Source: Octopus vulgaris
Taxonomy: Eukaryota
Length of the DNA: 64,000 nt
NCBI GenBank assembly: GCA_951406725.2
Contig: OX597819.1
Coordinates: 88,660,001 to 88,724,000, forward strand
Direction: 5' to 3'
Below are positions 15,559-64,000 of the stretch, piece by piece (position 1 is the stretch's first letter; each line of letters begins with the position of its first letter). The position numbers and the translations under genes were made by a program. The notes below the pieces were generated by a model. The model was not told where the DNA came from. It did not search any database and saw only the letters and a list, made by a program, of their open reading frames with translations.

Positions 15559-16004
15559 TGGTATTATTAAATCCATAGTGGGTTGAACCTAGCCAACTGA
15601 AAAGATGGATGTTGCAAGGCAATTATAATAATCACAGAAATATAGGAACTTAACTATAGATCTCAAGTTATTTATCCAGGGATTCAATGCTTTTGAAAAT
15701 TCATCACCTTAATAATCAAAATATATTTATAATGGACTACGTCTCTCAGTATATATATAGAGAGTCTGGTGAAATGAATTGATAGGTCCACATGTAACAT
15801 CCCAAGGCATATCTTTTTTCTCTGACGAAATTATGCTCATGTTACATAAATTCAAATTTTATGTAAAAATTTGTAATTAAAATATTGAGTATTAATTGAA
15901 ACAGCTGTGTAAAGCAAAGACGACCAGTTTGTTAATAATAAATAATTGTTAACTTCCTTATCTCTATTTTCTTTTCTTCTTTTAACTGGACATATATATA
16001 TTTC

Positions 16005-16635
<631 letters not shown>

Positions 16636-17872: not shown

Positions 17873-19463
17873 TACATTCTTTCCCGACTTATGGACTCTT
17901 AGACAACTTACACACACACACACACATATATACTGTTGTTTGTCATACTTTTGAAAATGTTAAAATCAAGTGAAAATTCTCAAATTAAGTATATTGATGC
18001 AGTTTTTCATTTTGAATCTGATTTTATTATTCACTTGTTCCAGAAATATTTTAGTAAAATGTTACAATAAAAAAATAAATGCACCCTTTTAAAACCTCCC
18101 CCTCCTCCCTACTTTTCCAGGAACCGGTGGCTTGCAGCAGGTTTGGAAGTCAGATACATTGAATGCACTAAAAAAATTCCAGGGAAAAAAATTATTTCAC
18201 ACAGAGGTATGGAAGGGTCCTTTACAAAATAATTTACCATAAAATTTTAAGTTTTGTGACAACATAGTGACTCGATACATTCTAATGAAAAAGTGAGAGA
18301 AAGAGATAATACCACCCTCTGTCTTTGGAAGAGAAATAAATTTTGGAGCAAGTGGAATTGAACACAGATCCACGTGGACTTGTAAAGTGAACTTCTTAAT
18401 CATACAGCCATGCCTGCAAGTATTGATATTAGTTCCAAATTTTAGCACCAGGCCAGCAATGTGAGAGGAGGATTTAAGTCGATTATGCCAACATCAGTAC
18501 TTAACTGATACCTATTTCATTGAGACCAAAAGGATGAAAGATAAGCTCAATGCCACCACCATTTTTACCTGACTTGAAAATTTGATGGTTGGTTAGAGGA
18601 AGGGCATCCAACTGTAAAAAAAATCCATCTCAGCAATAATCCATGTGATCCATGTGAGCATGGAAGAGTGGACGTTAAAACAATACTGATCTCATTATTG
18701 GTGTACAATAGCATCGTTAGCATTGAAGACACTTGGCCAAAGTGCCAAGCAATGGAACTGAACACAAACTCACATGGGCGTGTAAAGTGAACTTCTTAAC
18801 CATACAGACATACCTGCAAGTATTGATATTGGTTTCAACTTTTTGGCACAAGACCAGCAGTGTCAGGGGAAGGGCTAAGTCACTTATACCAAATACAGCG
18901 CTCAACTGATACTTATTTCATCAACCCTAAAAGGATGAAAGTCAAAGACAACCTCAGTGGAATCCTGCAAGTATTAATACTAACCTATATGAAGAATAGT
19001 GCACAACAGTAAATTAGCTTTCAACAAGTTGAAATTCCAGTCAGGTTTCAATTCTGAGTTGGTGCAAATGCTTCGTTTATATACTTTGATAAAGATATGT
19101 GAATGAAGTGAGTTCATTCATAACTTTTGACAACAAGGTGTGAATGTTACAAAATCCCTTTTTTAAAAACAGACCTTTGTGATTTCTTATTTAGAACGTC
19201 TTAGCTTTGATGAAAAATGAGATGATGCAAAAGTCATGCCATTCTCAAAATCATTAAGCTAATTAACTATGTAATAGTTACAGAAAATATTTATTGACTT
19301 CAAAACAATATAAATTACAAGCAAATATGATATATTTTCAAAAATTTACATACAAAATCATTCAAGTTATAAACTCCAAAGTTGAAAAATATCAATTATC
19401 TAACACCATAAATTTATTTTCCTTTTCCTTCTTTTCATTTTGTTCTCTATTATTTTGAGTACC

Positions 19464-22400
19464 TTAAGATAGAGCAACTTCATTCTTGCTGCCAACAGAA
19501 ATATCTATTCCTCCAGAAACATTCATATCCATACCAGTACAATATGTGCCATCAGCTGCTAGATAAAGACATGCTGTTCCAATATTGGAAGGAGTTCCCA
19601 TACAACCCATAACCTGCAAACAAAAAACAGAAACATTTAATTAATGGAAGTTGTTCTTAAACTATAATTATTAGTTGTTTGTAAGTGAATAGAGGACTTC
19701 TGCATAAAGGAGTGCCACACTCTAACTATGAAGGGTACCTGTGGAAGGGGTAAGTAAACCCAGGGAGACATGGGATGAAGTACCAAGAAAGGATCTTTGG
19801 ATGCTGGGCCTCACTGAGGAAATGACAAGGGACTGGGAGATGTGGGGATTTGCTGTACTTGATAAGACATGTCAAGCTATGTAAAATCGCTGTCTGCCAC
19901 ACATACAGGTTTGTTCTTTTAGGTGCCAGTGTCACTTAAAAAGCACCCATGCTGAGTGCTGCATAAGCACACCCTTGCTGGTGGCATGTAAAAAGGACCC
20001 AGCATACTCTATTGAGTGACTGGTGTTAGGAAGGGCAGCCAGACATAGAAACCATGCCACAACAGACAATTGGAGTCTGGACAGCTCTTTGCTTGCCAGC
20101 TCCATGTTAAACCATCCAACCCATGCCAGCATGGAAAGCAGATGGTAAATGATGATGATGATGATGATGATGTTGATGATTTAACATTCCAACTGCAAAG
20201 AAACAGAAAGGACAGCCCAGAGTTCAGAACAGTGGTAAAAAGTCATTGAAGGTTTATGCTATTACTGGACATGTAATGTCTGTATGCACAAATGACAGCA
20301 TTTAAATAAGCTAGTTGAGTACAATAGGAATCAAATGCAGAGTAGAATCTTTTTGGTTGCTGTCACAGATTTCCTTATTTTTTCAATTTTTTTCCAATTA
20401 TTTTCAAATATGTTTATACCAATTTAATTTCATATGCTTATTATGACAATGAAATAAATTTTGGCTATAAATTAATAAATAAAAAGTTTATAGCTTTTAA
20501 AGTTTGCAAATTTTGGGTAATTTTAGCCCATCAAAAACCACCATAATACACATGAGCATAAATCTCACACTGGTGTCTGTTTCCATAGTAACAAGCAGAA
20601 CCATAGTCTACCTTGTTTGCTTGTATATTTTCCAACCTTAATTCTTTGTACATCATTTTCATAATTTGATCTGGTTTCCTGGACATTTTCCAACAACATC
20701 ACAATTCTACATCTAAATACAGTATTACCACTGCAAAATCATGTAACCTTTCTTGTTGATAGAGAAAATACAGACCAAGAGGATGCAGATTGATTCTTAC
20801 TTTGGAGACAAGGGTGTTGTAGCTAAAAACAAGTTGTGTAAAGAAAGACATTATATGAAGAAGCTTGAATATTTCACAAGACATTATTCGTTAAAGCTCA
20901 TTAAAACCTTCATAACATTTTGCTCTCATTTTGTTGCTGCTGTCAATCATTTTGACACAGACAGCTATCATGCAGAAAATACCAGCTTCTGATTCATGCT
21001 TTTTGATTGGCTAAAAATGATCAAACTTTGAACTTCTGTAAGATTTTTCTAAAGTTTTTTCTCAGGAATAAATGAATCTCAAATTTGGATTCAGCATGAA
21101 AAATTACATCAATATATCAAATTTGGAAATCTGTGACAGCAAGCAAAAAAATTTGCAGGGTACAAGAAAGAAGGCACTAGTACAGGCATGTGATACATAT
21201 AGATGATGACGGATATATGAAGAAAAGTTTAGTGAGTGTGGTCACTAATTTATAGTATGAAAGTTTTCATAGAAAAGTCCTGTGAGTGAGCTTTTGAGAC
21301 GCTGTGTAATGGAATATCAGAAGGCAATTTTTAAACAAATAATGTAATTTATTAAATTATCTCAAGAGCTAACAAGTAATAAGAGCATAGCCTGGGTGTG
21401 TGTACATCAGTCAGGGAAAGCATTTCTACTTACGTTTGAAAAATAGATTCATTTGGAAGTTGCTATAAGCTAACAGAAATGGAGTTAGTACTGAAAAGTT
21501 CCTGGCTTTAAGTTTTCGTGAAAGGCCTGGTTGGAGACCCAACCTTCTGAGTTCTTTTACAAGGCTTAGAAAAACTGAAGGACTGCTGCAATAAGTGTGT
21601 GAATCTGGGAAGGGAAATATGTTGAATAAAATCACAATTAACTGATCCGATTATGTTTTTTTATCCAAAGCCAGGAACTTTTCCTCACACCCTTACACAT
21701 ATTTACTCTAGAAGCAGCTGTAGGTTTTGTCTCCAAACTATTACATTCAGTGAACTGGATCATTAAGATACTAGAAAAAGTCTTGCATGTAGCTACTTTA
21801 GAGTAACTTTTTTTCTTTTTGTGTATGAGATAACAAGACCAGAGTAGTGGGCTGATGTCAATAAGAATTTCGTGGAGCAAAGGGCATAAGTGAAATAGGC
21901 TGTTCATGATGTAGCAAGTTGTGAATGGCTAAAAATTTAGAGCTAGAGGTGTGAAGTTGGAGTGAAAAACAGGGAGGCTGTTCCCATGCTGTGACAGGCT
22001 AGGAGCTGATACAATCCAGAGCTAGCAGCGTGAGGCTGGTGTGAAAAACAAAGAGGCTGTTCCAAGAGAAATGTTGCTTGCCTGCTGTCTATCTGATAAT
22101 TGATTAAAAATTCCCACTTCATGGATAGAAAACTACCTTTGGTATTCATATATGCCCAGTCCTGATTGGCTGGAGAATGCCATAGTACAACTGTGATATG
22201 ATGTGACCTTTAAAATAGCTTTCTTGACTTGCTACAAAAGTATTCAAAGTTGAAATCTGTGGAAATGGAGACACAGGAAGACAACTCAGGATGCTGATCC
22301 TCATAGAGGAGATAACTAAGAACTGAGATAATTGGCAACAAGCAGTGCTAGAGAATAGTTACACACTTGTGCAAACATCATTAAATCGATGTCAGAAATG

Positions 22401-23628
22401 GTGGTAATAACAGACACTAGGGGGCATAATATATGTATTTATATACATGTGTGTCTATGTATATATGTAGGTTATACACACTAACATCAGGGTCCCTCAC
22501 ATAATGTGTCCTTGTCAATATAGTTTCCATAAATATAAAGATATCTTTTGTTTATTTATTTTAATTCTGTCTATTTTACAGTTATGAAACATCAATAAAG
22601 TATTCAGGTGAGGGTTATAGCTTTACCTTTTGTACAAACAAACCACACACAAAAGAGAATGGAGTAACAGGTATCCCATGGTTAAACATATCAACTGCAG
22701 TACATATTTTTAAAGTTGCAGAGATGTAAATAAACCAGTACCTATAGTCAGAAGGTATTGGTCAGCTATGGGGTGTAGTAGAAGACACTTGCCCATAGTG
22801 CCATGCAGTGGGACTAAACCTGGAACCACATAGTTGCAAAGCAAGCTTTACTATCATCATCACGGTTTTTCCACTGCTTTTTGGACTCATCTATAATGTT
22901 CACAGTTGCTCAGTGCTGGTTGGGCTCATGCTTCCTCCACTCAGGAATTCTTGACTTGCTCACCTTTTTAATTTCATCACTTACTGTTGCATCCATATGC
23001 CAGGAGGTCTCATATTAACTACTACATGCAGTTCTTCCTTCCCATGCATCATCTTTTTGGACCTTCCTCCTTGCTCTCTTTTTTTCTGCAGGTGCTGACT
23101 TGCAACAAAGTCCAAGGACGTTAACGGCACCAATCTAATCAGATATACTACAGCTGGGTACTCTTCCTGTCACTAACCCTCACCTATTTCCAAGCAGGGT
23201 GATATCATCCCATGGTCAGACATGTTCTCACACAACATTGGAAATGCATAATACAGCTAGTATGTCATTGAAAATCATTTATTAATGACTTGTCAGGATG
23301 TGGTATTTTGTTATGCCACCATAATATACTGTAAATTATGTTAATCGTTTTTTTGTAAGCCAATACTGTGTTCTACAGTGTGAGCAGCATTTATAACTAT
23401 CATGTAATGTCAACAAGATACAAACATACACGCATACTCTTTTGCTCTTTTACTTGTTACAGTCATTTGACTGTGGCCATGCTGGAGCACTGCCTTTAGT
23501 CGAGCAAATCGACCCCAGGACTTATTCTTTGTAAGCCTAGTACTTATTTTATCAGTCTCTTCTGATGAACCGCTAAGTTACGGAGACGTAAACACACCAG
23601 CATCGGTTGTCAGGCAATGTTGGGGGGA

Positions 23629-23666
<38 letters not shown>

Positions 23667-26600
23667 CGACAGACTTCTTTCAGTTTCTGTCTACCAAATC
23701 TACTTACAAGGCTTTGGTCAGCCTGAGGTTATAGTAGAAGACACTTGCCCAAGGTGCCACGCAGTGGGAATAAACCCGGAACCATGTAGTTGGTAAGCAA
23801 GCTACTTACCACACAGCTATTTCTGCACCTATGCTATAGTTGAAGACACTTGCTCAAAGACACATTATATGAAGAAGCTTGAATATTTCAGTGGGACTGA
23901 AACTGGAGCCATGTGGTTGGTAGGCAAGCTACTTACCACACAGCCACTCCTGCGCTTACATGCATGATGAGCTTCTTTCAGTTTCTGTTTGCCAAATCCA
24001 TTCACAAGGCTTTAGTTGGTCTGGGAATGTAAGAGAAAACACTTCCCCAAGGTACAACATGGTAAGGCTGAACTCTAAATCATGGGATTGGGAAAGATGC
24101 TTCATAACCTCATAACCAAGCATATTTGTGAAATATTTCTCACCTGGTAAGACACTCCTTCATTGTAAAATTTTTCTGGATTCTCTGCATTGTTCATTAC
24201 TTCTTCCCACATAGGTGTCCATATTGCTCCAGGAGAAACTCTAAAAAGCCAAAATATTTTTTTAATTAAATATTTTCCTAAGTCATTGTTAGCCACATCT
24301 CTGATCATTATTGTACAACAACCAGCATTAACTTTGCAATTTGTCCAAGAAAGAAGCAGTTTCACACTCACACAGGCAAGAGTTTGAATCCATTACAAAC
24401 TGTTATCTTCTCCCTACTCCTAACATCAATGAACTATTGTATATCTTGTCATGTGGACCTACTTTAACCTTATAGTACCATTGGGCCATTCCACTTGTAG
24501 GTTGTTTTTGTGAAAGACAGAAGGAAGGGTTACTTAGCTTATTCTTGTTTCAGTCATTCAGTGTGGCTCTTTTGGGGAACCACCTTGAAGGGTTTTAGTC
24601 AAATGAATCAATCCCAGTACCTAATTTTAAAGCCTAATATTTATTCTATCAGTCTCTTACACTGAACTGCTATGTTATGGGGATGTAAACAAACCAACAT
24701 CAGTTGTCAAGCAGTAGTAGGGGACAAACACAAAGGCTCACACACACATAGATACATGCATATATTTATATATACGATAGGCTTCTTCCAGTTTCTGTCT
24801 ATCAAATCCTCTCACAAGGTTTTTGTCAGCCTCTAAGTATAATAAAAGATACTTGTACAAGGTGCTATGTTGTGGGACAGAAACAGGAACCATGTGATTG
24901 AGAAGCCAACTTCTTATTACACTCACATGTACATACCTATGTGTGTGTGTGTGTGTGTGTAAATATTTAAATTATCTTTTTATATATCTTTACAATACTT
25001 CAATAACATCCTTAGTTTTATTTTATCTCAAATGAAAATATTTACGTGGCAATGCTGAAAAGTTCCTGGCTTTAAGTTTTTGTGAAAGGCTTGGTTGGAG
25101 ACCCAACCTTCTGAGTTCTTTTACAAGGCTCTGAAAAACTGAAGGTTTGCTGCAATAAGCATGTGAATCAGAGGGGAATATGTTTAATAAAATCACAATT
25201 AACTGATCCTCTTGTATTTTTTTATCCAAAGCCAGGAACTTCTCAGCACAGCTTCACACATTGCTCTAGAAGCAACTGTAGGTTTTGTCTCTAAAGTATT
25301 ACTTTCAGTGAACTTGCGTGTAGCTACTTAAGAGTAATTTTTTTCTTTTTGTGTATGAGATAAGTGGTCTTTATATTCACTACCATTATTAGAAGGTATG
25401 GGTACTGGATTCTTATTTTAGTTTTCAGGAAATTCAACATTCTTCAAATGTATCGCTGAATTTCAGATAATTGTAAATAGTTGATATAAAGTTTGTACAA
25501 TTGAATTAGTTATTCTGTAACTTAGGTCATCAGGGACATCTTAACTGCATTATGGGTCTGCAAGCAAAGTAATGCACTCTGGTCATTATAGTTATTGACA
25601 ACAAACCTCAATATAAAGTAGCATTAGACCCCAGTGTCATGGGGGCTCCTGGATAACTACCCTGCTTGTCCATAACTTAAGACAGCACTGCAAGTCAGTT
25701 TTTATTGAACAAATTTACGGTATGCACATAAACAGTCAAATGACATAGTGTGATCTGCTTTTCCTGTTGTATCATACCTCTGTCAGGCTGAGGACCATAC
25801 AGCATATTCTGACATGCAGTAGTTAATTACACATGATGCATTGCTATGGTCTGCTACTGAACATAATTTAGGTATGTTTGTCAATAACAATCTGTTAGAT
25901 AAACGACATTTCCAAAATAATCAAAAAGGCTGAAGATATCATAGCATCACTCAGTAAGACTTTTGTCAGCTGCTCATTTGCTATTTATTTAAAGCTGTAA
26001 ATGGTTTGAGTACACCCGCACGTATAGTTTGCATCACTTGTCCATAATCCACATTTTGTCCAGAATATCATTCTACTAGAAGCTGTCCAGAGATGTACAA
26101 TCAGACCAATACCCTCTGTCAGTCCCTTACCACATCTTTTTCTCTGAGTATTGATACACGAAAGTTTCAACATCTTGCAAGTGACTTTGTAGAAGTTCAC
26201 CATCTTTAGCCAATTTTTTTTACTTCACTACCTCTACTACCCATAGACAAGCTTATAAAACTAAAAAGCAGAGTAGCACTCGTGGCTTCTAGAAACAGTT
26301 TTTCTTGTTCAGAATTATTAAAGCATGGAATAATGTACTCATATTAGCTGTCATGACAGAGCATCTCTAAAGAATTCCAAGATTCCTTAAATTTGCCAAC
26401 AATACTCCTAATATGCTTATACACTGTTTATGACACTTTTGCTGCTTGATTTTCTGTACTTCTTATAGGTTTTTATCCTCTTTACTATGAATGCACTTTT
26501 GGTTCTCATTACTGCCTTTCTTACTAGATTTATTGCTGCTTTTTGTCCCTTCTTCTAACATTTTTTGATGAGCTGTAGAACACCTGAGCACCGTATAAAT

Positions 26601-29600
26601 AAACCCATTATGACTATTATTAGATTGAAGCTAAATTTTCTGTGGTACCTCTCAAAAAGATTGCTAATTTCTCTAAGAAGCAACAATTGCAGAAATGGGT
26701 TTCATATATAATGGAAGGCAAGGTTTACAATATTGGGAGAATATCTCCTTCTCCCATTATATCTTGTTCTTTGTGTAGTTCAGGCTCTGGCAGGCAAAGA
26801 AAGAATTCTTTAAATACAAATGCAATTTACAACCGGTTTATTTACAAGTTTCACAGAACAGGTGAAGTGCGTTGCTCTCAGCAACAATCTCAAGCTGTGT
26901 GCATGGTGTTGTATCTCTATTAGTACGGGCACATTGCTTCTGGAGATACAACATACAGACAGGCCCAGCCAGTGAAGTGTGCTCAGCAAGCACTGCTATG
27001 TAGAAGCGGAGAGAGGGAATGAATCTGTTTCTATTTTGTTCTTATATTCAGTTTACCATTGTGAGCCTTGTTGTGATCTCACACATGGCAAATGGATACA
27101 GGTGAGGTCTCGCTCCAGTCTCAGAGATAGCAATGGCTGCTGCGAGATCTCATCCAATATGGTGATGACTGCTTGTGCCGCTACACATATTTAGAGAGAG
27201 TTATACTCACGTATTCACTCGAACACCATGTTTAGCTTCACTGATAGCCAACGTCTTTGACATGCTTGCAATAGCACCCTGTCAATAAAATATAAATGAT
27301 AAACATGTTAAAGGATGACAAAATTTCAATTCAAAATTTGGCGTTAATTTCTTATTTGACCTTCATTGTGTTGATATCATTGAGATAGTCTGATCTAGAG
27401 TATACAGGATATAATGAAGTTGATAAGAGTATGAAAACTGAGTATGAAAAGGTGGCAAGCTGGCAGAATCGTTAGCATGCCAGGCGAAATGCTTATCGGT
27501 ATTTCGTCTGCTGTTATGTTGTGAGTTTAAATTCCGCCACGGTAGACTTTGCCTTTCATCCTTTCAGGGTTGATAAATTAAGTACCAGTTACGCACTGGC
27601 GGCGATGTAATCGACTTAATCCCTTTGTCTGTCCTTGTTTGTCCTCTCTGTGTGTAGCCCCTTGTGGGCAATAAAGAAACAAGAGTATGAAAACTGCTTG
27701 AAATAATGGTATATTGAGTTCAGTCATAGGCCAAAGTGTACATACACATACATGGCAAATACGTCAGATGACAATGAATGAAATAGGAAGTCATTAAGAA
27801 CGTAATGTTTTACAAAACAGAGAAAAAATTAGGTAATGTGAAATTATCTTATCAATTCTGAAATTGTTGATAAATTTTGTATTGCTTATATTAATACAGT
27901 AGTAGAATAATACATTGTTGATCAAATGATCAAGTGTGGTTGATTGCCATGCTAAAAAGAGCAACCTAGACTCACAAATTACTTATAGAAATGGAGGGAC
28001 CATTACCATTTTGTGTATCAAATATATTGTCCAATATATCCTTCTTTCAAGAAGGAAATTTGGCTGGTATTCCTAGCAGGTTGAGTGACCAATATGGAAG
28101 GCTTGTATTCTTGGTATAAGAATAAAACTGGAAAATGTGCTAAAAATAAGCTGGTACATATTTATTAGTGGCTGAGCCAATGGGGGAGTCCCTATATAAT
28201 CACTAAAGCTGTTAGAATGAGCAGCTTAACCTCTCATATTCCACACTACTGTTTCAAGTTAAGAATACATAAGAGAATGTAATGTCAGACTCCTTTAAAA
28301 CTTAAAGAAAGGCAGAATGGTCATGGCTGGAATGGTTTTATCATAGGTTTACTTGGTTAGTATTAATGTGGAGCAGTGGTTTTCAACCAGGGTTCCGCGG
28401 AACCTTAGGGTTCCGCCAGTACAGTCCAGGGGTTCCGCAAGAAGTTACCAAAACTGCTAAAATCGGCCGTAATTTTTAATTCTCCTGTGCAGATATGTGT
28501 GCATAAGACTATTAAATTATTGCACAGGGGTTCCTCAAGCCAGTGGAATGCTTCCTTGGGGTTCCGCTCCAGCAAAAAGTTTGAAAAGCACTGATGTGGA
28601 GCTTATCAAAAACATAGTATGATTTAATAAATGCAGGTATGATATCCATTTTCAGGAACCTTTGGTTCCAAAGCCCTTTCAGGTTATAGACTTTTCTGAA
28701 TCACAGGTGGTCACTTTGGTCAACGCATAATAAAATGAAATACAGACACTTGCACATTAGTATAAATGCAACAAGTTCATTAATAGTGTAATTTGCAAGG
28801 TACCAGGGAACTAGTCTGGTGGTTGCAAGAATTTAAAGTTCCTTCTTATAAATTAGAATGGCCTTGCTGGAGCCTTGGATATTTCATGGAGTAGACAACC
28901 TCTACAACATTTTTATTATATTTCTGAAATAATTTCCGCTGCTACAAAACAGATCTCACAGAAAGCATTATTTCAATACAGAGCAATGTGTGAAAAGCAA
29001 CAATAATTTCTGGTGTGTACATTACTGTCAAATAAATTCTTGTAATAGTCTCTTGGTGAAAAATTGTTCACGGTCAAGTTTCACTATCACTAGACCGATT
29101 TATATTCAAACATCATCCCTGTCATTATCAACTGTTTATGATTAGAGAGGGTCAAATGAAAAGAAACAATTGACTTGATTTATCAAATATGAATGAATGC
29201 AATAATTTATATACACTTTTACTTGTTTCAGTCATTTGACTGCGGCCATGCTGGAGCACCGCCTTTAGTCGAGCAAATCGACCCCAGGACTTATTCTTTG
29301 AAAACCTAGTACTTATTTTATCGGTCTGTTTTGCCAAACCGGTAAGTTACAGGGACGTAAACACACCAGTATCGGTTGTCAAGCGATGCTGGGGGGACAA
29401 ACACAGACACACAAACATATGCACATATATATATACATATATACGATGGGCTTCTTTCAGTTTCCGTCTAACAAATCCGCTCACAAGACTTTGGTTGGCC
29501 CGAGGCTATAGTAGCAGACACTTGCCCAAGGTGCCACGCAGTGGGACTGAACCCAGAACCGAGTGGTTGGTGAGCAAGCTACTTACCACACAGCCACTCC

Positions 29601-32600
29601 TGCACCTATATATATGATTTTCTTATATAAACAAATATATAAACATTCACTTGAACACACTCCTCATACAATTCTAAAGTAAATATGAATGTATGGTACA
29701 GATATATTAACCCTTTAGTGTTCGCATTATTCTGACAAAATTAGTGCTTCTTCATCCACATTGCTTTGAACTAATCATTCATCATCTTGTAGCCATGAGA
29801 TTTTGATGAGGTAGCTGTTAATTTTTAAAACGATATAGTAGGGTTGGTGTGAGAGACCAGATCTGGCCAGTATGAACATAAAACAGGCAGAATACTTTTG
29901 GCCGGATATGGCCGGTTTAAATGCTAAAGGGTTAAACTAAATATACAGCACAGAAATATATGTGGTATATAATAATCCATTATAGTTATCCAAGCAAAAC
30001 TACCAATAAAAAAACATGAGCAAACTAATGATTCACAAATGCAATAAGTTGCAAAATGATAATTTCCTTAAAGTTCATTAAACAGTCGTGGATTAGTAGG
30101 TCTTTACCAATAACTCATATGGTAACTTGATCCAAGCAAAAGCAGTAGCACAATTAAAGAGCATACTGCATATGCTAACTTTCTTACAGAAAGACAAGCA
30201 GAATTATAACGTGATTATTTAGAGGTTCTTGGTTATCAGTGCCTGGAAAGTCAGTGTTGTGTCTGTATTCAATTTTTGAAGGAAGCAAGTAAAATCAAAA
30301 TCAAATTCGATGACTGGCATACGTACTAGCGGGGTGCAAAGAGCACCATACAAGTGTGATCGTTGACAGAGCGGCTAACTGGCTTCCGTGTCGGTGGCAC
30401 ATAAAAGGCACCATTCGAGTGTGATCGTTACCAGCATCACCTTACTGGCACTTCTGCCTGTGCTAGTAGGGTACCAAGAGCACCATCTGAGCATGATCGT
30501 TGCCAGAGCGGCTAACTGCCTTCCATGTCGGTGGCACGTAAAAGGCACCATTCGAGTGTGATCATTACCAGCGTTGCCTTACTAGCACCTGTGCTGGTGG
30601 CATGCATAAAAAGATTCGAGTGAGGTCATTGCCAGTGCCGCCTGACTGGCCCCATGCCGGTGACAGGTAAAAAGCACCCACTACATTCTCGGAATGGTTG
30701 GCATTAGGAAGGGCATCCAGCTGTAGAAACTCTGCCAGATCAAGATTGGAGCCTGGTGCAGCCATCTGGTTCACCAGCACTCAGTCAAAATCGTCCAACA
30801 CATGCTAGCATGGAAAGCCGACATTAAATGATGATGATGATGATGAATAAAAACGGAAGTTTAAGATACTACTTACTTTTGATGCTGTATAAGGAATAGA
30901 GTCTTTCTGCCCAATGTAAGCCACCACACTAGCAATATTAATGATGTTACCTTTGGCGAGGCGTATGTAGGGAAGGGCATACTAGATTAAAAAAAAAGGA
31001 AAGTTAAAAATTCCGATCTATATAAAGCTAGCAAACACAGAAAACTGAAAATGTTTATAATATAAGTGTAGAGAAATATATGTAATGAGTTTTGTAAAAA
31101 AAAAGTAAATTAAGGGATTTGGTATAAACAAGGGATTGGTTAAGTGATGTAGACTCCTCTGATGCAAACTCAATGAGGTTTGAAAATTGATACGGGCACA
31201 GCTGTGGCTGTGTGGTAAGAAGTTTGCTTCTCAACCATAGGATCCCAGGTTCAATCTAACTGTGTGACACGGGTGTCTTCAACCATAGTCTTAGGCTCTG
31301 GGTGAACCAAAGCCTTGTGTGTGGATTTGATAGATGGAAACTGAAAGAAGTCCATCATGTGTGTGTGGATATACACACACACACACACACACATGTTGGT
31401 TTGTCCATCAACATTACTTGACAACTGGTATTGGTTTGTTTATATTGTCATAACTTAGCAGTTTGGCAAAAGTGATTGGTAGAATAGGTACCAGCTTAAA
31501 ATAAGTACTGTACTCAATTTGCTCAACTAAACTCGTCAAGGAGATGCTCCAGCATGATGTCAAGACATAGACACACAGATACACACACACACACAGTCAG
31601 ATGTGTCTTCATCATTATTCAAAGCCTATTTTCCATGCTGGCATGGGTTGGATGGTTTGACTAGAGCTGGCAAGCTGGAGAACAGTTTGTTTCTGCTTGA
31701 TTAATAGTATTTGCATTGCATTGAGGGTCTGTAATTGAAAATATCGAAAATTTTGAATTCATCATTCATATGAATTCCTTTTTGTTCTTGAATCTTATAG
31801 TTTCATTGTTTTTGATAAATTTAACCATGCTATAATGTATTACATATGATATAGTTTAAGTATAGTAACAAAACTAGGAGAACTGTTAAGGGGACAGAAA
31901 TCAAGTTATTGCAATCAACCATACTCTCTCAGAAAAGTCAATTTTTCATGGATATTTCCAGAGAAGCCTTCAGATTTCATAGATGTACAGGTGTCATTGG
32001 CAGTAGGGAAAATTCCATGAATGAAGTCCATGAACTGCTAACACTTCTAATGAGACTCGTGTTATAGTTCCTGGTAGTTTATGCTTTGTGGATCTAATGA
32101 GTGTTAAAGTGAGTTATACAGAGTAACAAAAAGGTTGAAATTTTGTGAGTTGTCTCTTCTGTTGTCAGCAAAAGATATCTCTGTATATAAGAAAAGTAGA
32201 CCCTATAGATCATTCATAAAAATTATGATGATATAGGGTAATGAGACATGGTCATAGAGAAGTGTTAACTTTCGTGAAAGGCAATGTATAATTGAGCTGT
32301 GAGTGTGATAGGACACTAAAGGCATCTGTTGATGTCCCCAGGAAAAATGAATGTACTGGCATGGATGTGTACGATGGATTTCCAATGAGTGTTTTGAAAA
32401 ATAAATAAATAAAAAAGATAATGCCGTTTGCTTATAGTGGAAGGTATTTAACATAGAAAAATTAAGACATGATGGAAAGAAATGAAAACAATAACATTTA
32501 TAAGAGAAGAATACAGAAATGAAGAAATGAGTAAAGTCACCTTGCATGTGAGGAATACAGCAATTAAATTTACTTGAAGAAGTTTATAAAAGCATTCAAC

Positions 32601-36100: not shown

Positions 36101-37539
36101 ACAGGGATATATATAAAGCAGCTTAGCATATTCCTTATTGAGGTCATAAGAATTTATAGACATTTGAGAGAAAGTAGAGTAAAACTTTCTTGAATAGGAT
36201 ATATTAATAATAGCATGTCAATATTCTTTTCTATTCGAGGCACAAGGCCGAAATTTTGGGGGAAGGGTCAGTCGATTAGATCGATCCCAGTACACATCTG
36301 GTACTTAATTTTATCGACCTCGAGAAGATGAAAGATAAAGTCGACCTCGGCGGAATTTGAACTCAGAATGTAAAGACAGACGAAATACCGCTAAGTATGC
36401 AACTGGTACTAAATTTATCGACCCCGAGAGGATGAAAGACAAAGTTGACCTCGGCGGAATTTGAACTCAGAACGTAACGGCAGACGAAATACCTATTTCT
36501 TTACTACCCACAAGGGGCTAAACACAGAGAGGACAAACAAGGACAGACAAACGGATTATGTCGAATATATCGACCCCAGTGCGTAACTGGTACTTAGTTT
36601 ATCGACCCCGAAAGGATGAAAGGCAAACTCGACCTCGGCGGAATTTGAACTCAGAACGTAACGGCAGACGAAATACCGCTTAGCATTTCGTCCGGCGTGC
36701 TAACGATTCTGCCAGCTCGCCGCCTGTAAATATTAGGTTGAAAAACGATCTGGATAGAAAAAGTTAAATCTCATACCAAGGATGTCACAGAAGGCAACTT
36801 TTGCACCATTCTTCACTGCAAGGAAAACAAAAAGAAAAAAAAAGTTATGACAATATCGTTCTAACTTAAATAACAGAAAATGGTTAATCATTAGAGTAAA
36901 TATTTCCGATTTGACCGGTTTCAATTAAACAAAAGCCTTCAGGGAATATACAGATATTTCTAGGTTGGGGACCCAAGCAAAACTAGAGATTTCATAACAT
37001 ATGATTGATTGTTTATACAGGTGGTGTGGAACCTTATAATTGGGCTGTGAGGTTATTCACTTCACAGTTATGTAATTTTGAGTTCAGTCCCACTAAGTGA
37101 CATTTTGGGCAACTGTATTCTAGTATAATCCCAAGCTGACCAATGTTTTCTCAGTTTTCGAACTGAACCATTAATTTTAGAAATGATCATTATGACTGTT
37201 AGATCAGTTAAACAAGCTTTGATGTGGTTAGCGTGTGAACAACCTCCATATCTCAGAAGTGGAATGACTGTTGATAGTACTCTACTAAAGGGTGCGTGTC
37301 TTGTTCATGCACAGTTAATGACCTGTTATAAAGAACAGGTATTACAAATAACTTACAAACTTCTTATTGCTTGCTTTTTGTAAAGCAAGGAGCGGCTGTG
37401 TGGTAAGTAGCTTGCTAACCAACCACATGGTTCTGGGTTCATTCCCAATGCGTGGCACCTTGAGCAAGTGTCTTCTGCTTTGCCTCGGGCCGACCTGTGA
37501 GTGGATTTGGTAGACGGAAACTGAAAGAAGCCCGTCGTC

Positions 37540-37596
<57 letters not shown>

Positions 37597-38225
37597 GTGT
37601 ATGTTTGTGTGTCTGTGTTTGTCCCCCAACATCGCTTGACAACCGATGCTGGTGTGTTTACGTCCCCGTAACTTAGCGTTTCGACAAAAGAACCGATAGA
37701 ATAAGTACCAGGCTTCCAAAGAATAAGTCCTGGGGTCGATTTGCTCGACTAAAGGCGGTGCTCCAGCATGGCCGCAGTCAAATGACTGAAACAAGTAAAA
37801 GAGAACCACTTAAAGAGAAGAGAAATTTAGTAATATATCAAATTTAGTACATGATGTCAGGCATAAGTAAATGTGTATTTGACTGTTCATTTCTGTCCAG
37901 TAGATAAAAGACAATGTCACACACACAGTCAAGACATTGGAGAGTGTGGCCGAAAGATTGCTGAGAAAGTCGTATTTCAGAACTTTTGCAACATTCTATT
38001 CCTAACGAGCTAAAGTTCTGACTGTAATACACAGACACATGCAGAGAGAGATAAAGAGAGAGAGAAGGAGAGAGAGAGAGAGAGAGCGGGGGCATAGATG
38101 ACAGCAAAAACAAGTTAATTAAAACAGATATAGTTACCGAATGTTTCAACACATCCTTTCCCAATTCCCCGGGCACCACCAGTAACGATGACAACTTTGT
38201 CCTGGTATCGGAGAGACGAATCCAT
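19464..38225 (-). CDS. HSD17B14: HSD17B14-like short-chain dehydrogenase/reductase, copy B (complete, 9 exons, 804 nt, 267 aa)
   Basis: Exons (- strand): 38225-38138 (MDSSLRYQDKVVIVTGGARGIGKGCVETF; TGxxxGxG), 36815-36777, 35651-35554, 32923-32857, 32632-32541, 30981-30877 ([19 protein letters not shown]), 27278-27211, 24240-24144, 19613-19464 (TAA). Lengths 88/39/98/67/92/105/68/97/150; exons 2-9 match copy A in length. All splice sites GT-AG, no stops. Asp in VAFCD suggests NAD(H) preference. Confidence 0.92.
20355..21144. mobile_element. Non-autonomous TIR element (about 790 bp), duplicated in copy C at about 55221-56007
   Basis: Inverted ends TTGCTGTCACAGATTTCC / GGAAATCTGTGACAGCAA. Confidence 0.65.
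21490..21690. mobile_element. Mariner-type MITE (other copies at about 25050-25250 and 50645-50855)
   Basis: TIRs CTGAAAAGTTCCTGGCTTT / AAAGCCAGGAACTTTTC. Confidence 0.72.
23437..24010 (-). mobile_element. tRNA-derived SINE (family 1), full copy plus tandem partial heads
   Basis: Full copy at 23437-23831 with additional head fragments to about 24010; homologous partial array in copy C at 52815-53060. Confidence 0.8.
26707..27185 (-). mobile_element. Probable solo LTR (479 bp) with 4-bp TSD
   Basis: Ends TA(TG)...CA; CATA duplicated at 26703-26706 and 27186-27189; AATAAA on the minus strand near 26840. The paralogous copy A intron (AAATGTGAAACCCATT, about 8697-8712) shows the empty site. Confidence 0.7.
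27451..27680 (+). mobile_element. Full family-2 SINE with Tx1-type tail; TSD AAGAGTATGAAAACTG
   Basis: TSD at 27425-27440 and 27681-27696, with 10 extra nt (AGTATGAAAA) at the 5' junction; tail GCCCCTTGTGGGCAATAAAGAAA. Confidence 0.85.
28374..28593. mobile_element. hAT-type MITE (220 bp)
   Basis: TIRs CAGTGGTTTTCAA / TTGAAAAGCACTG; perfect 8-bp TSD ATGTGGAG (28366-28373, 28594-28601). Confidence 0.88.
29216..29607 (-). mobile_element. tRNA-derived SINE (family 1)
   Basis: Same head, core and tail as the other family-1 copies. Confidence 0.85.
29711..29931. mobile_element. piggyBac-type MITE
   Basis: TTAA|CCCTTTAG ... CTAAAGGG|TTAA. Confidence 0.8.
32951..33222. repeat. Local tandem duplication containing (TAA)n
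   Basis: AAACCATAATATAAATACCTATA(TAA)n...GTTAAAAAGCCTTTTTA occurs twice. Confidence 0.85.
33372..34560 (-). mobile_element. RTE-clade LINE 3' fragment with repeat-containing 3' UTR and (GAT)n tail
   Basis: FRYLG, RIRIAWAKFRKL, YDACVRTAMLHSSETW, RRLHWYGHV, GRGRPRKTW; tail AAATGATGATG. Confidence 0.85.
36222..36724 (-). mobile_element. Nested/tandem array of three family-2 SINE units
   Basis: The unit with Tx1-type tail ends GTAGTAAAGAAATA and is followed directly by GGTATTTCGTCTGCCG (36493-36478), a repeat of 36677-36662. The last unit carries the alternative CCCAAAATTTCGGCCTTGTGCC tail. Confidence 0.85.
37387..37803 (+). mobile_element. tRNA-derived SINE (family 1)
   Basis: Same head, core and tail; long internal (TG)n. 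Confidence 0.85.
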
Positions 38226-38399: not shown

Positions 38400-38576
38400 T
38401 CCTCTGACTTATGGCATTTGGTGAATGGGGGACTTTGCTGCCCTCAGCTGCATTTATTGCTGCAGGGTATCTTCATCCGGAACTTTTGACAGGAAGCGAT
38501 GCAGTCTCGTTACAAAGATGCCCACATCCACTGCATGCAATTCACTCATGCTTTGTGGGAGGATATTAAAAAGCTG
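38400..38576 (-). mobile_element. Old CR1/L2-like LINE 3' fragment (continues at 44175-44225), interrupted by the SINE and Tx1 LINE
   Basis: Joining across the insertion gives FNRLGFKSPQLFNILPQSMSELHAVDVGIFVTRLHRFLSKVPDE, which resembles a LINE RT-ORF C-terminus. Confidence 0.6.
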
Positions 38577-38798
38577 CGAGCTGGCAGAACCGTTAGCACG
38601 CCGGGTGAAATGCGTAGCCGTATTTCGTCTGCCGCACATGTGTTCGTGAAGTAAGAATTGCTGTTTCGTGGTGTTAATATTGTTAACAACTGTTGTTTCT
38701 TGTTAAACTGTTGAATAACTTAACTGTTGGAGTTTTCAATTGAAAACACTTAGTGCTTGTGGTAGCACGCGTTGTTCATTCCCCCTTTGGGGGGAAGA

Positions 38799-51024: not shown

Positions 51025-54000
51025 TCATCATCATCGTTTAGCATCCACTTTCCATGCTAGCATGGGTTGGACGGTTCAACTGGAGTCTGGGAAGCCAGAA
51101 GGCTGCATCAGGCCCAGTCTGATCTGGCAATGTTTCTATGGCTGGATGCCCTTCCTAACGCCAACCACTCCGTGAGTGTAGTGGGTGCTTTTTATGTGCC
51201 AGACGAGGCTGGCAATGGCCACGAACGGATGGTGCTTTTCACGTACCACTGGCACGAGGCCAGTCAGGGCGGCGCTGGCAATGGCCATGTTCGGATGGTT
51301 CTCTTACGTGCCACCGGCACTGGTATCACAGCTGCAATTTCCATTGATGTTGATCGATTTCGATTCTCACTTGCCTCAACAGGTCTTCACAAGTAGAGTT
51401 TTGTGTCCCCAGAAGTAGACTGGCACATCCTGGGTTATGGTTTCACTTGTCCTGCCGGGTCTTCTCACGCACAGCACACTTCCAAAGGTCTCGGTCTCTA
51501 GTCATTTCCTCAGTGAGACCTAAAGTTCAAAGGTCGTGCTTCACCACCTCGTCCCAGGTTTTCCTGGGTCTGCCTCTTCCACAGGTTCCCTCAACCGCTA
51601 GGTTGTGGCACTTTTTCACACAACTATCTTCATCCATATAGACCTGTTGAGGCAAGTGAAAATCGAAATCAATCAACATAATGGAAATTGCAGCTGTGAT
51701 ACCAGTGCCGGTGGCACGTAAGAGAACCATACGAACATGGCCGTTGGCAGCGCCGTCTTGACTGGCCTCTGTGCCGCAGGCACGTAAAAAGCACCATCTG
51801 ATCGTGGCCGTTTGCCAGCCTCGTCTGGCACCTGTGCCAGTGGCACCTGTGCCAGTGGCACGTAAAAAGTACCCACTACACTCACGGAGTGGTTGGCGTT
51901 AGGAAGGGCATCCAGCTGTAGAAACACTGCCAGATCAGACTGGGCCTGGTGCAGTCTTCTGGCTTCCCAGACCCCAGTTGAACCGTCCAACACATGCTAG
52001 CATGGAAAGCGGACGTTAAACGATGATGATGATATAGGCATATACATGTAAGTGTAATAAGAAGTTGGCCTCTCAATCACATGGTTCCTTGTACAAGTAT
52101 CTTCTATTATACTTACAGGCTGACAAAAACCTTGTGAGAAGCCCATCATATATATAAATATATACCTGTATCTATGCGTGTCTACCTTTGTGTTTGTTCC
52201 ATACTACTGTTTGACAACTGATGTTGGTTTGTTTACATCCCCATAACAGCAGTTCAGTGTAAGAGACTGACAGAATAAATATTAGGCCCAATGGTACTAT
52301 GAGGTTAAAGTCAGTCCACATGACAAGATATACAATAGTTCATTGATGTTAGGAATGAGGAGAAGATAACAGTTTGTAATGGATTCAAACTCTTGCCTGT
52401 GTGAGTGTGAAACTGCTTCTTTCTTGGAAAAGTTGCAAAGTTAATGCTGGTTGTTGTACAATAAAGATCAGAGACGTGGCTAACAATGACTTAGGAAAAT
52501 ATTTAATTTAAAAAATTTTTTGGCTTTTTAGAATTTCTCCTGGAGCAATATGGACACCTATGTGGGAAGAAGTAATGAACAATGCAGAGAATCTAGAATT
52601 TTACAATGGAGGAGTGTCTTGCCAGATGAGAAATATTTCACAAATATGATTGGCTGTAATGTTATGAAGCATCTTTCCCAATCCCATGATTTAGAGTTCA
52701 GCCTTACCATATTGTACCTTGGGGAAGTGTTTTCTCTTACATTCCCAGACCAACTAAAGCCTTGTGAATGGATTTAGCAAACAGAAACTGAAAGAAGCTC
52801 ATCATGCATATAGGCACAGGAGTGACTGTGTGGTAAGTAGCTTGCCTACCAACCACATGGTTCCAGTTTCAGTCCCACTGCGTAGCACTTTGAGGAAAGT
52901 GTCTTCAACTATAGCATAGGCACAGGAGTAGCTGTGTAGTAAGTAGCTTGCTTACCAACCACATGGTTCCGGGTTCATTTCGACTGCGTGGCACCTTGGG
53001 CAAGTGTCTTCTACTATAGCCCCAGACCAACCAAAGCTTTGGTAAATAAAAACTGAAAGAAGCTCATTATGCGTGTATGTTTGTATCTCATTGACATTGC
53101 ATGATAGTTATAAATGCTGCTCACACTGTAGAACACAGTATTGGCCTATAAAAAAATGATTAATATAATTTACAGTATATTATGGTGGCATAACAAAATA
53201 CCACATCCTGACAAGTCATTAATAAATGATTTTCAATGACATACTAGCTGTACTATGCATTTCCAATGTTGTGTGAGAACATGTCTGACCATGATATCTC
53301 CTTGCTTGGAAATAGGTGAGGGTTAGTGACAGGAAGAGTACCCAGCTGTAGTAATCTGATGTCCTTGGACTTTGTTGCAAGTCAGCACCTGCAGAAAAAA
53401 AGAGAGCAAGGAGGAAGGTCCAAAGAGCTGATGCATGGGAAGGAAGAACTGCACATAGTAGTTAATATGAGACCTCCTGGTATATGAATGCAGCAGTAAG
53501 TGATGAAATTAAAAAGGTGAACAAGTCAAGAATCCTTGAGTGGAGGTGACATGAGCCCAACCAGCTTTGGGCAGCAGTGAACATTATAGATGAGTCCAAA
53601 AAGCAGTAGAAAACCATGATGATGATAGTAAAGCTTGCTTTGCAACCATGTGCTTTCAGATTCAGTCCCACTGCATGGCACTATGGGCAAGTGTCTTCTA
53701 CTACAGTCCAAAACCCAGTGAGTGAGTATGATTGATAGAAGCTGTGTGGAAGCCTGTCATTGGTATGTGTCTGTGTTTGTTTCCACTTGACTACTGATGT
53801 TGGTTTGTTTACATTTCTGCAACTTAACAGTGTAGCAAAAGTGACCAATGGAATAAGTATCACACTTTAAAAATATGTCCTGGGATTGATATATTTAACC
53901 ATGGAATATCTCTTACTCCATTCTATTTTGTGTGTGGTTTGTTTGTACAAAAGGTAAAGCTATAACCCTCACCTGAATACTTTATTGATGTTTCATAACT

Positions 54001-56710
54001 GTAAAATAGGCAGAATTAAAATAAATAAACAAACGACATTTTTATTGTATGGAAGCTATATTGACATGGACATGTGTGAAGGTCCTAAATAGTAGTGTGT
54101 AAACAGACATACATATCTTCATAGACACATATGTACATAAATACCTACATATATTATGCCTCCTAGCATCTGTTACTACCACCATTTCTGACATCGATTT
54201 AATGATGTTTGCACAAGTGGGTAAATATTCTCTAGCACTGCTTGTTGCCAATTATCTCAATCCTTTGTTATCTCCTCTGTGAGGATCAGCATCCAGAGTT
54301 CAGTCTTCCTGTGTCACCATTTCCACAGATTTCAACTTTGAATACTTTTGTAGCATGCTAGTTGTGTTATGGCATTCTCCAGCCAATCAAGGCTGAGCAC
54401 ATGAATACTGATGGCAGTTCTCTGCCCATGAAGTGAAGTGGAAGTTTCTAATCAGTTAGCGGACAGACAGCAGACAAGCAACATCTCTTTCAACATAGAA
54501 CAATCTCTTTGTTTTTCACACCAACTTTGCACTACTAGCTCTAAATTTTTAACCACTCTCAGCTTGCTACATCATGAATGGCTTATTTCATTTATGCCCA
54601 CTTCGCCCCATGATATTCTGGATGACATTAGCCCACTACTCTGGTCATGTTATGAACAGTATATTTTCATAAGCCAGCTCCATTTCTGTTAGCTTATAGC
54701 AACTTCCAAATGAATCTATTTTTCAAATGTAAGTTGCTTTCCCTACCTCATGCATACACACTCAGGCTTCACTCTTATTACTTGTTAAGCTCTTGTGATA
54801 ATTTAATAAATTACATTCCCTCTCTCTCTCTTTCGGAGAGGCACTGAACAGCTATATGCACACATACATACACGGCAGTAACTTCCGCCTACCGAATTCA
54901 ATCACAAAGCTTTGGTCGGCTCGGGGCTATAGTGAAAGACACCTCCCCAAAGTGCCACGCAGTGGGACTGAACCCGAAACCATGTAGCTAGGAAGCAAGC
55001 TCCCTAACCACACAGCCATATTTGTTTAAAAAAACTTTCTTCTGATATTCCATTACACATGCTTCTCAAAAGCTCACTGACAGGACTTTTCTACAATAAC
55101 TTTCATACTATAAATTAGTGACCACACTCACTAAAATTTTCTTCATACATCTGTCATCATCTATATATATATCACATGCCTGTACTAGTGCATTCTTTCT
55201 TGTACCCTGCAAATTTTTTTGCTTGCTGTCACAGATTTCCAAATTTGATATATTGGTGTAATTTTTCATGCTGAATCCAAATATGAGATTCATTTATTCC
55301 TGAGAAAAATTTCAGAAAAATCTTACAGAGGTTCAAAGTTTGATCATTTTTAGCCAATCAAAAAGCATGAATCAGAAGCTGGTATTTTCTGCATGATAGC
55401 TGTCTGTGTCAAAATGATTGACAGCAGCAACAAAATGAGAGCAAAATGTTATGAAAGTTTTAATGAGCTTTAATGAATAATGTCTTGCGAAATATTTGTA
55501 CTTCTTCATATAATGTCTCTCTTTACACAATTTGCTTTTAGCAACAACACCCCTGTCTTCAAAGTAAAAATCCACATCCTCCTTAGTATTCATTTTCTCC
55601 ATCAAATAAGAAAGGTTACAAGATTTTGCAGTGGTAATATTGTATTTCGATGTAGAATTGTGATGTTGTTGGAAAAGGTCCTGGAAAACAGGTCAACTAA
55701 TGAAAATGCGATTCAAAGAATTAAGGCTCGGAAATATACAAGCAAACAGGGTAGACTATGGCTTTGCTTGTTACTCTGGAAACAAACACCAGTGTGAGGT
55801 TTATAGCTGTGTGTATAATGGTGGTTTTCGCTGCGCTGAAAGTACCCAAAATTTGCAAACTTTAAAAGCCATGAGCTTTATATTTATTAATTTATAGCCA
55901 AAATTTATTTCAGTGTTACAATTAGTATATGAAACTAAATTGGTATAAACAAATTTGAAAATAATTGGAACAAAATTGTAAAAATAAGAAAATCTGTGAC
56001 AGCAACCAAAAAGATTCTACTCTGCATCTGATTCCTATTGTACTCAATTAGCTTATTTAAATGCTGTTATTTATACATACAGACATTACATGTCCAGTAA
56101 TAGCATAAACCTTCAATGACTTTTTACTGCGGTTCTGAACTCTGGACTGTCCTTTCTGTTTCTTTCCAGTTTGAATGTTAATTCATCATTATTGTTTAAT
56201 GTCCTCTTTCACTGCTGGCACGGACTGGACAGTTTGACATAGAACGGGCTAGCAAGGAACTGTCCAGACTCCAACTGTCTGTTGTGGCATGGTTTCTACG
56301 GCTGGATGCCCTTCCTAACACCAACCACTTATCAAAGTGTGCTGGGTACATTTTATGTGCCACTGGCACAGGTGTGTTGATGCAGCACCAGCACAGGTGC
56401 TTTTCAAGTGGTGCCAGTACCTGAAGGGACAAGCCTGAATATGTGGAAGACAGTGATTTTAATTAGTTTGGCACTTCTTCATGCCACTGTGCTCTATCCA
56501 CTAACAATTACAGTTCATTAAGAACAACTTCCATTAATTAAGTGCATGTGTTCTTTGCAGGTTATGGGTCATATGAGAACTCCTTCCAATATTGGAACAG
56601 CATGTCTTTACCTAGCAGCTGATGGCAAATTTTGTACAGGCATTGATATTAATGTTTCTGGGGGAATAGATATTTCCTTTGGCAGCAAGAGCAAAGTTAC
56701 CCTATCTTAA
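49365..56710 (+). pseudogene. HSD17B14: HSD17B14-like pseudogene, copy C (remnants of exons 4, 5, 8, 9 only)
   Basis: Exon 4 at 49365-49431 with acceptor AG>AA; exon 5 at 49975-50068 with +2 nt frameshift (GGATAT-AT-ACT); exons 6-7 deleted (junction about 50254); exon 8 at 52532-52625 with 3-nt deletion and donor GT>AT; exon 9 at 56561-56710. No exons 1-3 found upstream. Confidence 0.9.
51025..52032. mobile_element. Two 5'-truncated RTE copies fused head-to-head (51025-51640 minus; 51641-52032 plus)
   Basis: (CAT)n tail at the left end and (GAT)n tail at the right end; junction ...CATCCATATA|GACCTGTTGAG; absent from the paralogous copy B site (about 24940). Confidence 0.8.
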
Positions 56711-57098
56711 GAAACTCAAACTAATAGAGAAGAAAATGAAAAGAAGGAAAACGAAAATAAATTTATGCTGTTAGATAACTGATATTTTTCAACTTTGGGG
56801 TTTATATTTTCCTACAATAACTTGAATGATTTTGTATGTGAATTTTTGAAAATATATCATATTTGCTTGTAATTTATATTGTTTAAAGTCAATAAAGGCT
56901 TTATTGCATTTGTCACTTGGAAATTTTCTGTAGCCATTACATAGTTAATTAGCTTAATGTTTCTGAGAATGGCATGACTTTTGCATCATCTCATTTTTTA
57001 TCAAAGCTAAGATGTTCTGAATAAGAAATCAAAATGGTCTATATTTTTGAAAGAAGGATTTTCAAATTTTATTTTAATTAACTCTTCAGTTATCCAAT

Positions 57099-62823: not shown

Positions 62824-63211
62824 GGTGCAGGAGTGGTTGTGTGGTAAGTAGCTTGCTTACCAACCAAATTGGTTCCAGGTTCAGTCACACTGTGTGGCAC
62901 CTTGGGCAAGTATCTTCTACTATAGCCTCGAGGTGACCAAAGCCTCATGAGTGGATTTGGTAGATGGAAACTGAAAGAAGCCAGTTATATATATGTATAT
63001 GTATATATATATGTGTGTGTGTGTGTTTGTTCCCTCAACATTGCTTGACAACTGATGCTGGTGTGTTCACGTCCCTGTAACTTAGCGGTTTGGCAAAAGG
63101 ACCGATAGAATAAGTACTAGGCTTACAAAGAATAAGTCCTGGGATCGATTTGCTCGACTAAAGGCAGTGCTCCAGCATGACCGCAGTCAAATGACTGAAA
63201 CAAGTAAAAGA
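62824..63211 (+). mobile_element. tRNA-derived SINE (family 1)
   Basis: Same head, core and tail as the other copies. Confidence 0.85.
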
Positions 63212-64000
63212 TTAAACAAAATAAAAAATTTATACACTTTTAGTACATATTAAACAAGATAAACATAAATAAAAGTGAATTTTTAAAATAATTGTCTGAT
63301 TTCACTGAAATAAATAGTTTATTCTGGAACACCCTGTATCATATGTGGCGACTTTGTGCGGCAATGATGACCCTCAGAGATGTTAAGACCATTACTTAGA
63401 AACAACCAATTGATGAAAATTTGTCTACTTCAAATCATTAGGTACTTGTACATCTATCTCCAGCAAATAACAGTAGATAAGCCTGTAATATGTTTAATTA
63501 GAAACAGAATATATCACAGCTGTAAAAATATGGTGTTATCTAATATAGAAAAGTGAAAAACATGGAAAATATTTTTGTGTCTTAGGTTTCTCCTTTGTAA
63601 CAAGTTTCCTCTCTGATCTGAAATTGACCAAAGCTGAAATATGAAGAATCCTGAGTATTAAATTGTGACTGATCTTTGATCTTTGCGACCTCAGCTCTTG
63701 AATATAATGAAGTAATCAGAATGCAAACAAAATCTTCCCAAATACTTCTGTATTAATACTTTTAAAAAGAATTTCATAACTGTGAAAGGTCATTCAGTCT
63801 ATTCCACATTGACACAATCTAACATATGACAACAAAATTATTGACTTCCTAAAATTGATTTTGGCTTGGTTGAGGCAAGTTTACAAATCACATTTACAAC
63901 CTTATAATATTTCTTGCTATGAAGCTATTTATAGACCTCACTATCAAGAATATGACACAAAGACAGATGGCAACATCACCACTAATGATAAGATTTAATA

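Follow-up and report, generated by a model that had tools for sequence, protein, structure and literature searches.

A shared junction position in a SINE head for an L1/Tx1-type LINE and its likely partner SINE in Octopus vulgaris

The window analyzed here is a 64,000-nucleotide stretch of the Octopus vulgaris genome (contig OX597819.1, positions 88,660,001 to 88,724,000, forward strand). It contains a full-length L1/Tx1-type LINE of 5356 bp on the plus strand (38635..43990). Its ORF1 (39062..40330, +), 422 aa from stop to stop, has a CCHC zinc knuckle (PF00098, E 6.8e-5, 23.2 bits against a cut-off of 20.8), which is a feature of the Tx1 clade. ORF2 (40339..43518, +) is 1059 aa long and encodes an APE-type endonuclease, a reverse transcriptase and a zf-RVT domain (PF03372, PF00078 and PF13966). 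In this copy, ORF2 is disrupted near 43491 by a frameshift of one base, beyond which it stays open in another phase to about 43745. ORF2 scored 220 bits against human L1 ORF2p and 75 bits against R2. Its best named relative among 61 matches is the 'Transposon TX1 uncharacterized 149 kDa protein' (323 bits). The relatives of ORF1 in an Atlas search are unnamed CCHC proteins only. In a quick reverse transcriptase tree of 45 rows, built without curated Tx1 or L1 references, the query did not group with the 'Transposon TX1' protein. The element is therefore described here as L1/Tx1-type, and its membership in the Tx1 clade is likely. The end of ORF1 contains an internal 98-bp duplication (40122-40219 and 40230-40324, 72% identical) that encodes repeated proline-rich motifs.

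The LINE is located inside a SINE. The head of this host SINE, which belongs to the group that we call SINE-A, includes the A box and covers SINE positions 6-63 (38577..38634, +). The remainder with the B box and the tail is found on the other side of the LINE (43991..44174, +). All SINE positions are numbered from 36724, which is position 1. The LINE is flanked by a 16-bp target duplication. Its left copy (38619..38634, +) corresponds to SINE positions 48-63, and the right copy (43991..44006, +) matches it at 15/16. At the 3' junction, the LINE ends ...ATAAAGAAATT at 43990 (+) and is followed by CGTATTTCGTCTGGCG from 43991. The host SINE-A has its own 16-bp duplication in a non-SINE target (38561-38576 / 44175-44190, +, 15/16). 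Insertion of the LINE moved the A box of the host 5.4 kb away from its B box. The 5' end of the LINE has no homology to the SINE. Together with the true duplication, this indicates that homology with the LINE body does not explain the position of the LINE. A dehydrogenase-like gene has its start codon about 350 bp from the start of the SINE-hosted LINE, which lies upstream of the gene and head to head with it (38577 versus 38225).

The SINE is interspersed, present in high copy number and flanked by target duplications. SINEs make up 3.8% of the window. Between 71,641 and 393,277 contigs per public sequencing run fall on the region, with depth concentrated on the SINE bins. An A-box-like motif at positions 11-21 and a B-box-like motif at positions 73-85 were identified by eye by comparison with the general box consensus sequences. 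ARAGORN found 0 tRNA genes in the SINE, and no tRNA family was present among 5 Rfam matches. Ohshima and Okada reportedly described the tRNA-derived SINEs OR1 and OR2 of Octopus in 1994. Judged by resemblance, the SINE presumably belongs to this OR1/OR2 (CORE) group.

Copies of the SINE carry A, B or C tails. The last 42 nt of the LINE (43948..43989, +) and the SINE-A tail are identical at 35/42 nt, a match equaled in 0/1000 shuffles for both A copies tested. The B and C tails (3 copies tested) do not match the 3' end of the LINE, and for B, 806 and 898 of 1000 shuffles gave an equal score. The match in A and its lack in B and C suggest that SINE-A is the likely partner SINE of the LINE. Another SINE-A copy (27451..27680, +) is inserted in a non-SINE target and has a perfect 16-bp duplication (27425-27440 / 27681-27696, 16/16). 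Between the left copy of this duplication and the SINE-A head are ten extra bases (27441-27450) that repeat part of the duplication, which looks like slippage during 5' joining. Elsewhere, the paralogous stretches 13926-14064 (+) and 18963-18845 (-) contain 5'-truncated SINE pieces at one AT-rich spot, one with a B and the other with a C tail. They represent either two insertions at a single site or a tail swap.

The window contains additional repeated sequences. A second family of abundant interspersed repeats, about 400 bp in length, has an internal TA/TG microsatellite and at least 7 copies with 78-90% identity (11388-11780, 16003-16410, 23433-23832, 29203-29609, 37388-37805, 44655-45027 and 62821-63223). 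The regions 19150-25600 and 50250-57060 form a large, shuffled and inverted segmental duplication with 82-91% identity. At 45552-46680 lies a tandem array whose units recur at about 14, 29 and 43 bases and whose three plus-strand frames are all open.

A composite SINE locus on the minus strand (36222..36724) has three segments. Segment 1 (36494..36724, -) aligns as a full-length SINE-A of 231 nt with the LINE-shared tail. This tail terminates in ...GTAAAGAAATA at 36494 (-), and GGTATTTCGTCTGCCG begins at 36493 without a gap. An earlier sequence-only reading of the window claimed this junction between a SINE tail and a SINE body, and the letters are present as it described them. The 16 nt straight after the tail (36478..36493, -) are a second copy of the target, identical at 16/16 to positions 48-63 of segment 1. 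They are the beginning of segment 2 (36394..36493, -), a head-less SINE piece that covers positions 48-147. Segment 3 (36226..36393, -), absent from the earlier reading, is a head-less SINE-B that extends from position 44 to a non-Tx1 tail. Segments 2 and 3 meet with a 2-nt microhomology (position 147 to 44). No T4 run is found inside the composite, and the first T4 is located 541 nt from the head.

The entire composite is enclosed by a 10-bp duplication. The left copy (36725..36734, -) agrees with the right copy (36216..36225, -) at 9/10, and the right copy overlaps the end of the B tail. The 10-bp site is present once (2046-2055) in a paralogous intron of the same window, which confirms the duplication. 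The outer element is thus B-tailed and has a 10-bp duplication, unlike the elements with 16-bp duplications. The composite lies in sense orientation within an intron of a short-chain dehydrogenase-like gene (38225-35300, -). The first exon of this gene is at 38139-38225, and its adh_short match (E 0.0035) falls under the curated cut-off. A paralog with about 85% identity is located at about 1700-3700 (+). Its matching intron does not contain the composite; another, internally deleted SINE is found there about 24 bp further on (2080 onward).

The subfamily letters of segment 2 are mixed. Positions 61 and 63, which fall within the target, have A-type letters and positions 141 and 144 have B-type ones, by an assignment based on 3 A and 3 B copies. 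Target-primed reverse transcription in its standard form takes the downstream duplication from the host. Either the host therefore had these A-type letters, perhaps favored by the enzyme, or a different dimer was the source of the junction. The mosaic could also fit an imported A-to-A dimer junction or a template switch. Segments 2 and 3 both carry 102T and 113C, and 113C is absent from all 8 remaining copies of the alignment that cover this position. The two segments differ at 11/100. Most likely, an older SINE-B with an internal duplication was present first and the A module arrived afterwards. Segment 1 looks slightly younger (2/94 versus 11/188 in segments 2 and 3), a difference that is not significant (P = 0.23). 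A mutation clock that seemed to give a younger age to positions 48-94 of segment 2 was discarded because segment 3 has the same pattern (1/45 versus 6/49). The seamless 5' junction of segment 1 would be read from the single head, in which no diagnostic position proves the joint.

The arrangement of the composite raises the question of template jumping. The tail of one abundant SINE RNA could have been joined to the processed or paused end of another at the hairpin loop described below, with no preference for a DNA target. Such jumping would account for three segments within one 10-bp duplication, and the second junction (147 to 44) is likewise at the hairpin loop. It leaves unaccounted for the 16-bp duplication of the LINE at the exact same base in an otherwise collinear SINE. 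Moreover, segments 2 and 3, with two common variants and 11/100 differences, look more like an old local duplication than like fresh templates. We consider template jumping improbable.

The tail of segment 1 and the 3' end of the LINE both join the SINE at position 48, as the sequence-only reading had claimed in pointing to a common register. A motif search of the window found 4 Tx1-type tail ends, belonging to the LINE, segment 1, the host SINE of the LINE and the copy at 27451. Position 48 follows the tail at 2/4 of these ends, and the remaining 2/4 are in non-SINE DNA. Counting SINE-A copies only, 1/3 in the window is at position 48. Were insertions random and independent, one of the other 3 ends would fall on this base and strand with a probability of about 2.5e-4 to 7.6e-4, taking a SINE share of 3.8% (window) or 11.6% (O. 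vulgaris genome, from the available portion of PMC13282606). The coincidence at position 48 is a real feature beyond chance. The position reads C to the left and right of the LINE and G on either side of the dimer, as expected of duplications derived from the respective hosts. The specificity is not absolute, and here the earlier reading was borne out as well: the copies at 27451 and 38577 interrupt non-SINE sequence, and both are flanked by 16-bp duplications. The measurable duplications of tail-sharing elements are all 16 bp long (3/3) and end in CTG or CCG, a pattern spotted post hoc with a background of 1.9% per site.

The target site is located between the A-box-like and B-box-like motifs. 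Folding predicts a 13-bp hairpin in the SINE head (36665..36694, -), in which positions 31-43 pair with 48-60 around a 4-nt loop (RNA z = -2.6, DNA z = -1.9). The junction base is the first after the predicted loop in both hosts. This placement would fit a site chosen by structure, where the 13-bp inverted repeat extrudes a cruciform, the LINE or a host nuclease nicks the loop, and any retroelement can prime. However, the hairpin is modest, since 3.5% and 16% of 2000 random 60-mers from the window fold equally well. The two non-SINE targets show little likeness to the SINE site and no hairpin at the nick, yet have the same 16-bp spacing. The number of B-tailed or C-tailed SINEs in the window that run into position 48 is 0, which also disagrees with priming by any retroelement. 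A choice by structure alone is thus very improbable.

Recurrence of the junction was assessed in contigs of 4 of the 24 public sequencing runs listed, aligned to 38450-44300 at 80% likeness. Contig counts are not locus counts, those of runs X1, X2 and X15 are lower bounds, and sums of contig depth were not taken as copy number. The alignments yielded 1700 joints, of which 15 are listed, and 5712 loose ends, of which 24 are listed. Among the 15 listed joints is one from 44173 to 44007, which connects the tail to the SINE body at position 64. It occurs in 4/4 runs, in 13, 17, 12 and 3 contigs (at least these numbers in three of the runs). The letters between the two sides are not given, so this joint leaves the register unfixed. 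We set aside a joint from 44139 to 43956, since the 34 letters on one side of it are the same as the LINE tail by itself.

In X15, which we guess to be RNA and which may be biased toward repeated sequence, the consensus of at least 154 loose-end contigs after the tail consists of two letters followed by the target, at 17/17 letters. Simulation indicated that such a majority requires about 20-25% or more of the contigs to be in register. In X2, a deep DNA run, the majority of at least 1164 contigs after the tail regains 1/9 of the G/C target letters, implying that the share of loose-end contigs at the site is below about 15%. The tail in X2 is also joined to SINE position 122 at a similar depth (1304 versus 951). 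The earlier reading proposed a sharp single-position peak as its check. Gauged indirectly from contigs, there is a majority signal in X15; in X2 the share is small and at least one other landing position appears. Kojima (2015) regarded a family as target-specific when more than 20% of its flanks are the same kind of sequence (available text of PMC4494074). By this measure, SINE-A tails reach about 20-25% or more in X15 and less than about 15% in X2, counted in contigs rather than loci. Scans of metagenome, prokaryote and viral collections with junction and SINE patterns returned chance matches of 20-46 nt at most, with the SINE in 0/25 loci.

Recurrence could also reflect the amplification of a few chance nested insertions as units, namely the dimer and maybe a SINE-LINE-SINE sandwich. 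These would be transcribed as far as a terminal SINE-A tail and retrotransposed, or would reach other SINE copies by homologous annealing or gene conversion. The composite, with no internal T4 run over the first 541 nt from the head, is suited to being copied whole, and the sandwich ends in a tail recognizable by the LINE and has its own 16-bp duplication. Segment 2, A-type in the target and B-type beyond, resembles an imported junction. An unbranched X15 contig of 1767 nt, which extends from position 36 of the SINE into LINE sequence, would fit a common master. Compared with the window copy, 9 of its letters are different, and at several listed sites it has the alleles that prevail in the LINE family of organism A, which suggests another LINE copy with the same 5' junction. 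Amplification offers no reason for the use of one base by both elements, LINE and SINE, in hosts with different alleles (C versus G). X1 contains a diverged variant of the junction in the same register, and Pol III would halt at a T4 run in the 5' end of the LINE (38733). The duplication of the LINE and the different alleles at position 48 argue against amplification or template jumping as the sole cause, and we regard amplification as rather unlikely to be the main explanation. Since dimers without a T4 run would be copied as units, part of the recurrence is likely secondary spread.

We favor, with a probability of about 60%, a real but loose preference of the LINE endonuclease for the 16-bp site in the SINE head, which would explain the shared joins at position 48. 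ORF2p would nick the bottom strand between positions 47 and 48, at the edge of the predicted hairpin loop. The top strand would be cut 16 bases further on, and the RNA of either the LINE or SINE-A would then be copied. Copying of the LINE RNA would give an ordinary duplication and a split host promoter. The SINE-A RNA contains the target, so that its cDNA could join the host head by homology. The product would consist of a single head, a tail and a second unit lacking its head. A simple cut in a resident B host needs a host with A-type letters at 61 and 63, segment 2 being a mosaic. The sequence-only reading took the two junctions as separate events that reveal an endonuclease preference. The same register, the common tail and the recurrence in public contigs agree with it; an independent cut between 36494 and 36493 is a possibility only, to which an imported dimer or a template switch would be alternatives.

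A broader and more tentative possibility is a self-targeting loop, in which a young family of Tx1 LINEs would insert mainly into the head of the SINE that parasitizes it. If so, each LINE insertion would split the A and B boxes and silence a SINE copy. A SINE insertion at the same base would restore an intact promoter and swap tails between SINE subfamilies. Such a loop would contribute to the large SINE diversity of octopus genomes.

Known targets of Tx1 elements include small-RNA genes, microsatellites and other transposons. In the available text of PMC4494074, a preference of Tx1-clade elements for other repeats is documented. The closest likeness is found in crocodilians, where Tx1-Mar LINEs and SINEU share a graded preference for a Mariner site, with target specificities of 13%, 23% and 90% in the three SINEU families (Kojima 2015, PMC4494074). 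As proposed for the octopus, a Tx1-type LINE and a SINE that it likely mobilized both favor, to a limited degree, a site within an interspersed repeat. Copies are often in tandem, and hitch-hiking was raised there as a rival explanation (PMC4494074). The crocodilian target is a Mariner DNA transposon with regional insertion sites; in the octopus it is one base in the partner SINE. Unlike SINEU, SINE-A has the 3' tail of the LINE, and its RNA contains the target. In Xenopus laevis, Tx1L in Tx1D is likewise an APE-type LINE at a fixed site in a mobile element, determined by its endonuclease (available portions of PMC4494074 and PMC1919474). Its target, however, is a piggyBac-type DNA transposon and its specificity was shown biochemically, whereas the octopus LINE is known from sequence and its off-target use is evident.

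Head-less SINE arrays occur in Scapharca broughtonii, with one headed SINE and head-truncated units in one duplication, like segments 2 and 3 (Martelossi 2024, available text of PMC11481361). Those arrays differ in being attributed to recombination, and the partners named there are CR1, CR1-Zenon, L2 and Nimb, with no Tx1. Their inner junction is without a complete tail, unlike that of the octopus dimer. SINE-derived satellites also occur in reptiles (PMC10702118, in part). R2 provides a model for the seamless 5' junction. It is co-transcribed with its 28S target, and the target-bearing RNA can aid site-specific integration by homology (PMC4494074 and PMC3414825, available portions). R2 differs in its restriction-like endonuclease, its strict rRNA-gene target and its ribozyme, none of which applies to the octopus case.

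In octopus, L1-Tx1 elements occur in abundance and some of them are active (PMC8967140 and PMC13282606). The 13 active L1-Tx1 families of O. vulgaris average 5.4 kb per insertion (2,288,644 bp / 421), near the 5356 bp of the LINE described here. The available text of PMC13282606 gives no target site or SINE partner for them, and that of PMC3747384 and PMC4758252 names no Tx1 partner for octopus SINEs. In searches of openly readable papers, we found no Tx1 LINE that targets its partner SINE and no site of the octopus type.

If a LINE favors the promoter region of the very SINE that borrows its enzymes, target choice would be tied to the conflict between LINE and SINE. If true, targeting of the SINE head would offer the LINE a very abundant safe harbor, and the SINE would gain a way to evolve as a mosaic. 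Head-less SINE dimers, which inflate automatic family counts, would be explained as well. Module swaps confined to one fixed base can be counted directly. Should dimer amplification account for most of the recurrence, the locus is ordinary repeat nesting. Targeting of repeats by Tx1 elements is known; the unusual point here is the partner SINE as the target.
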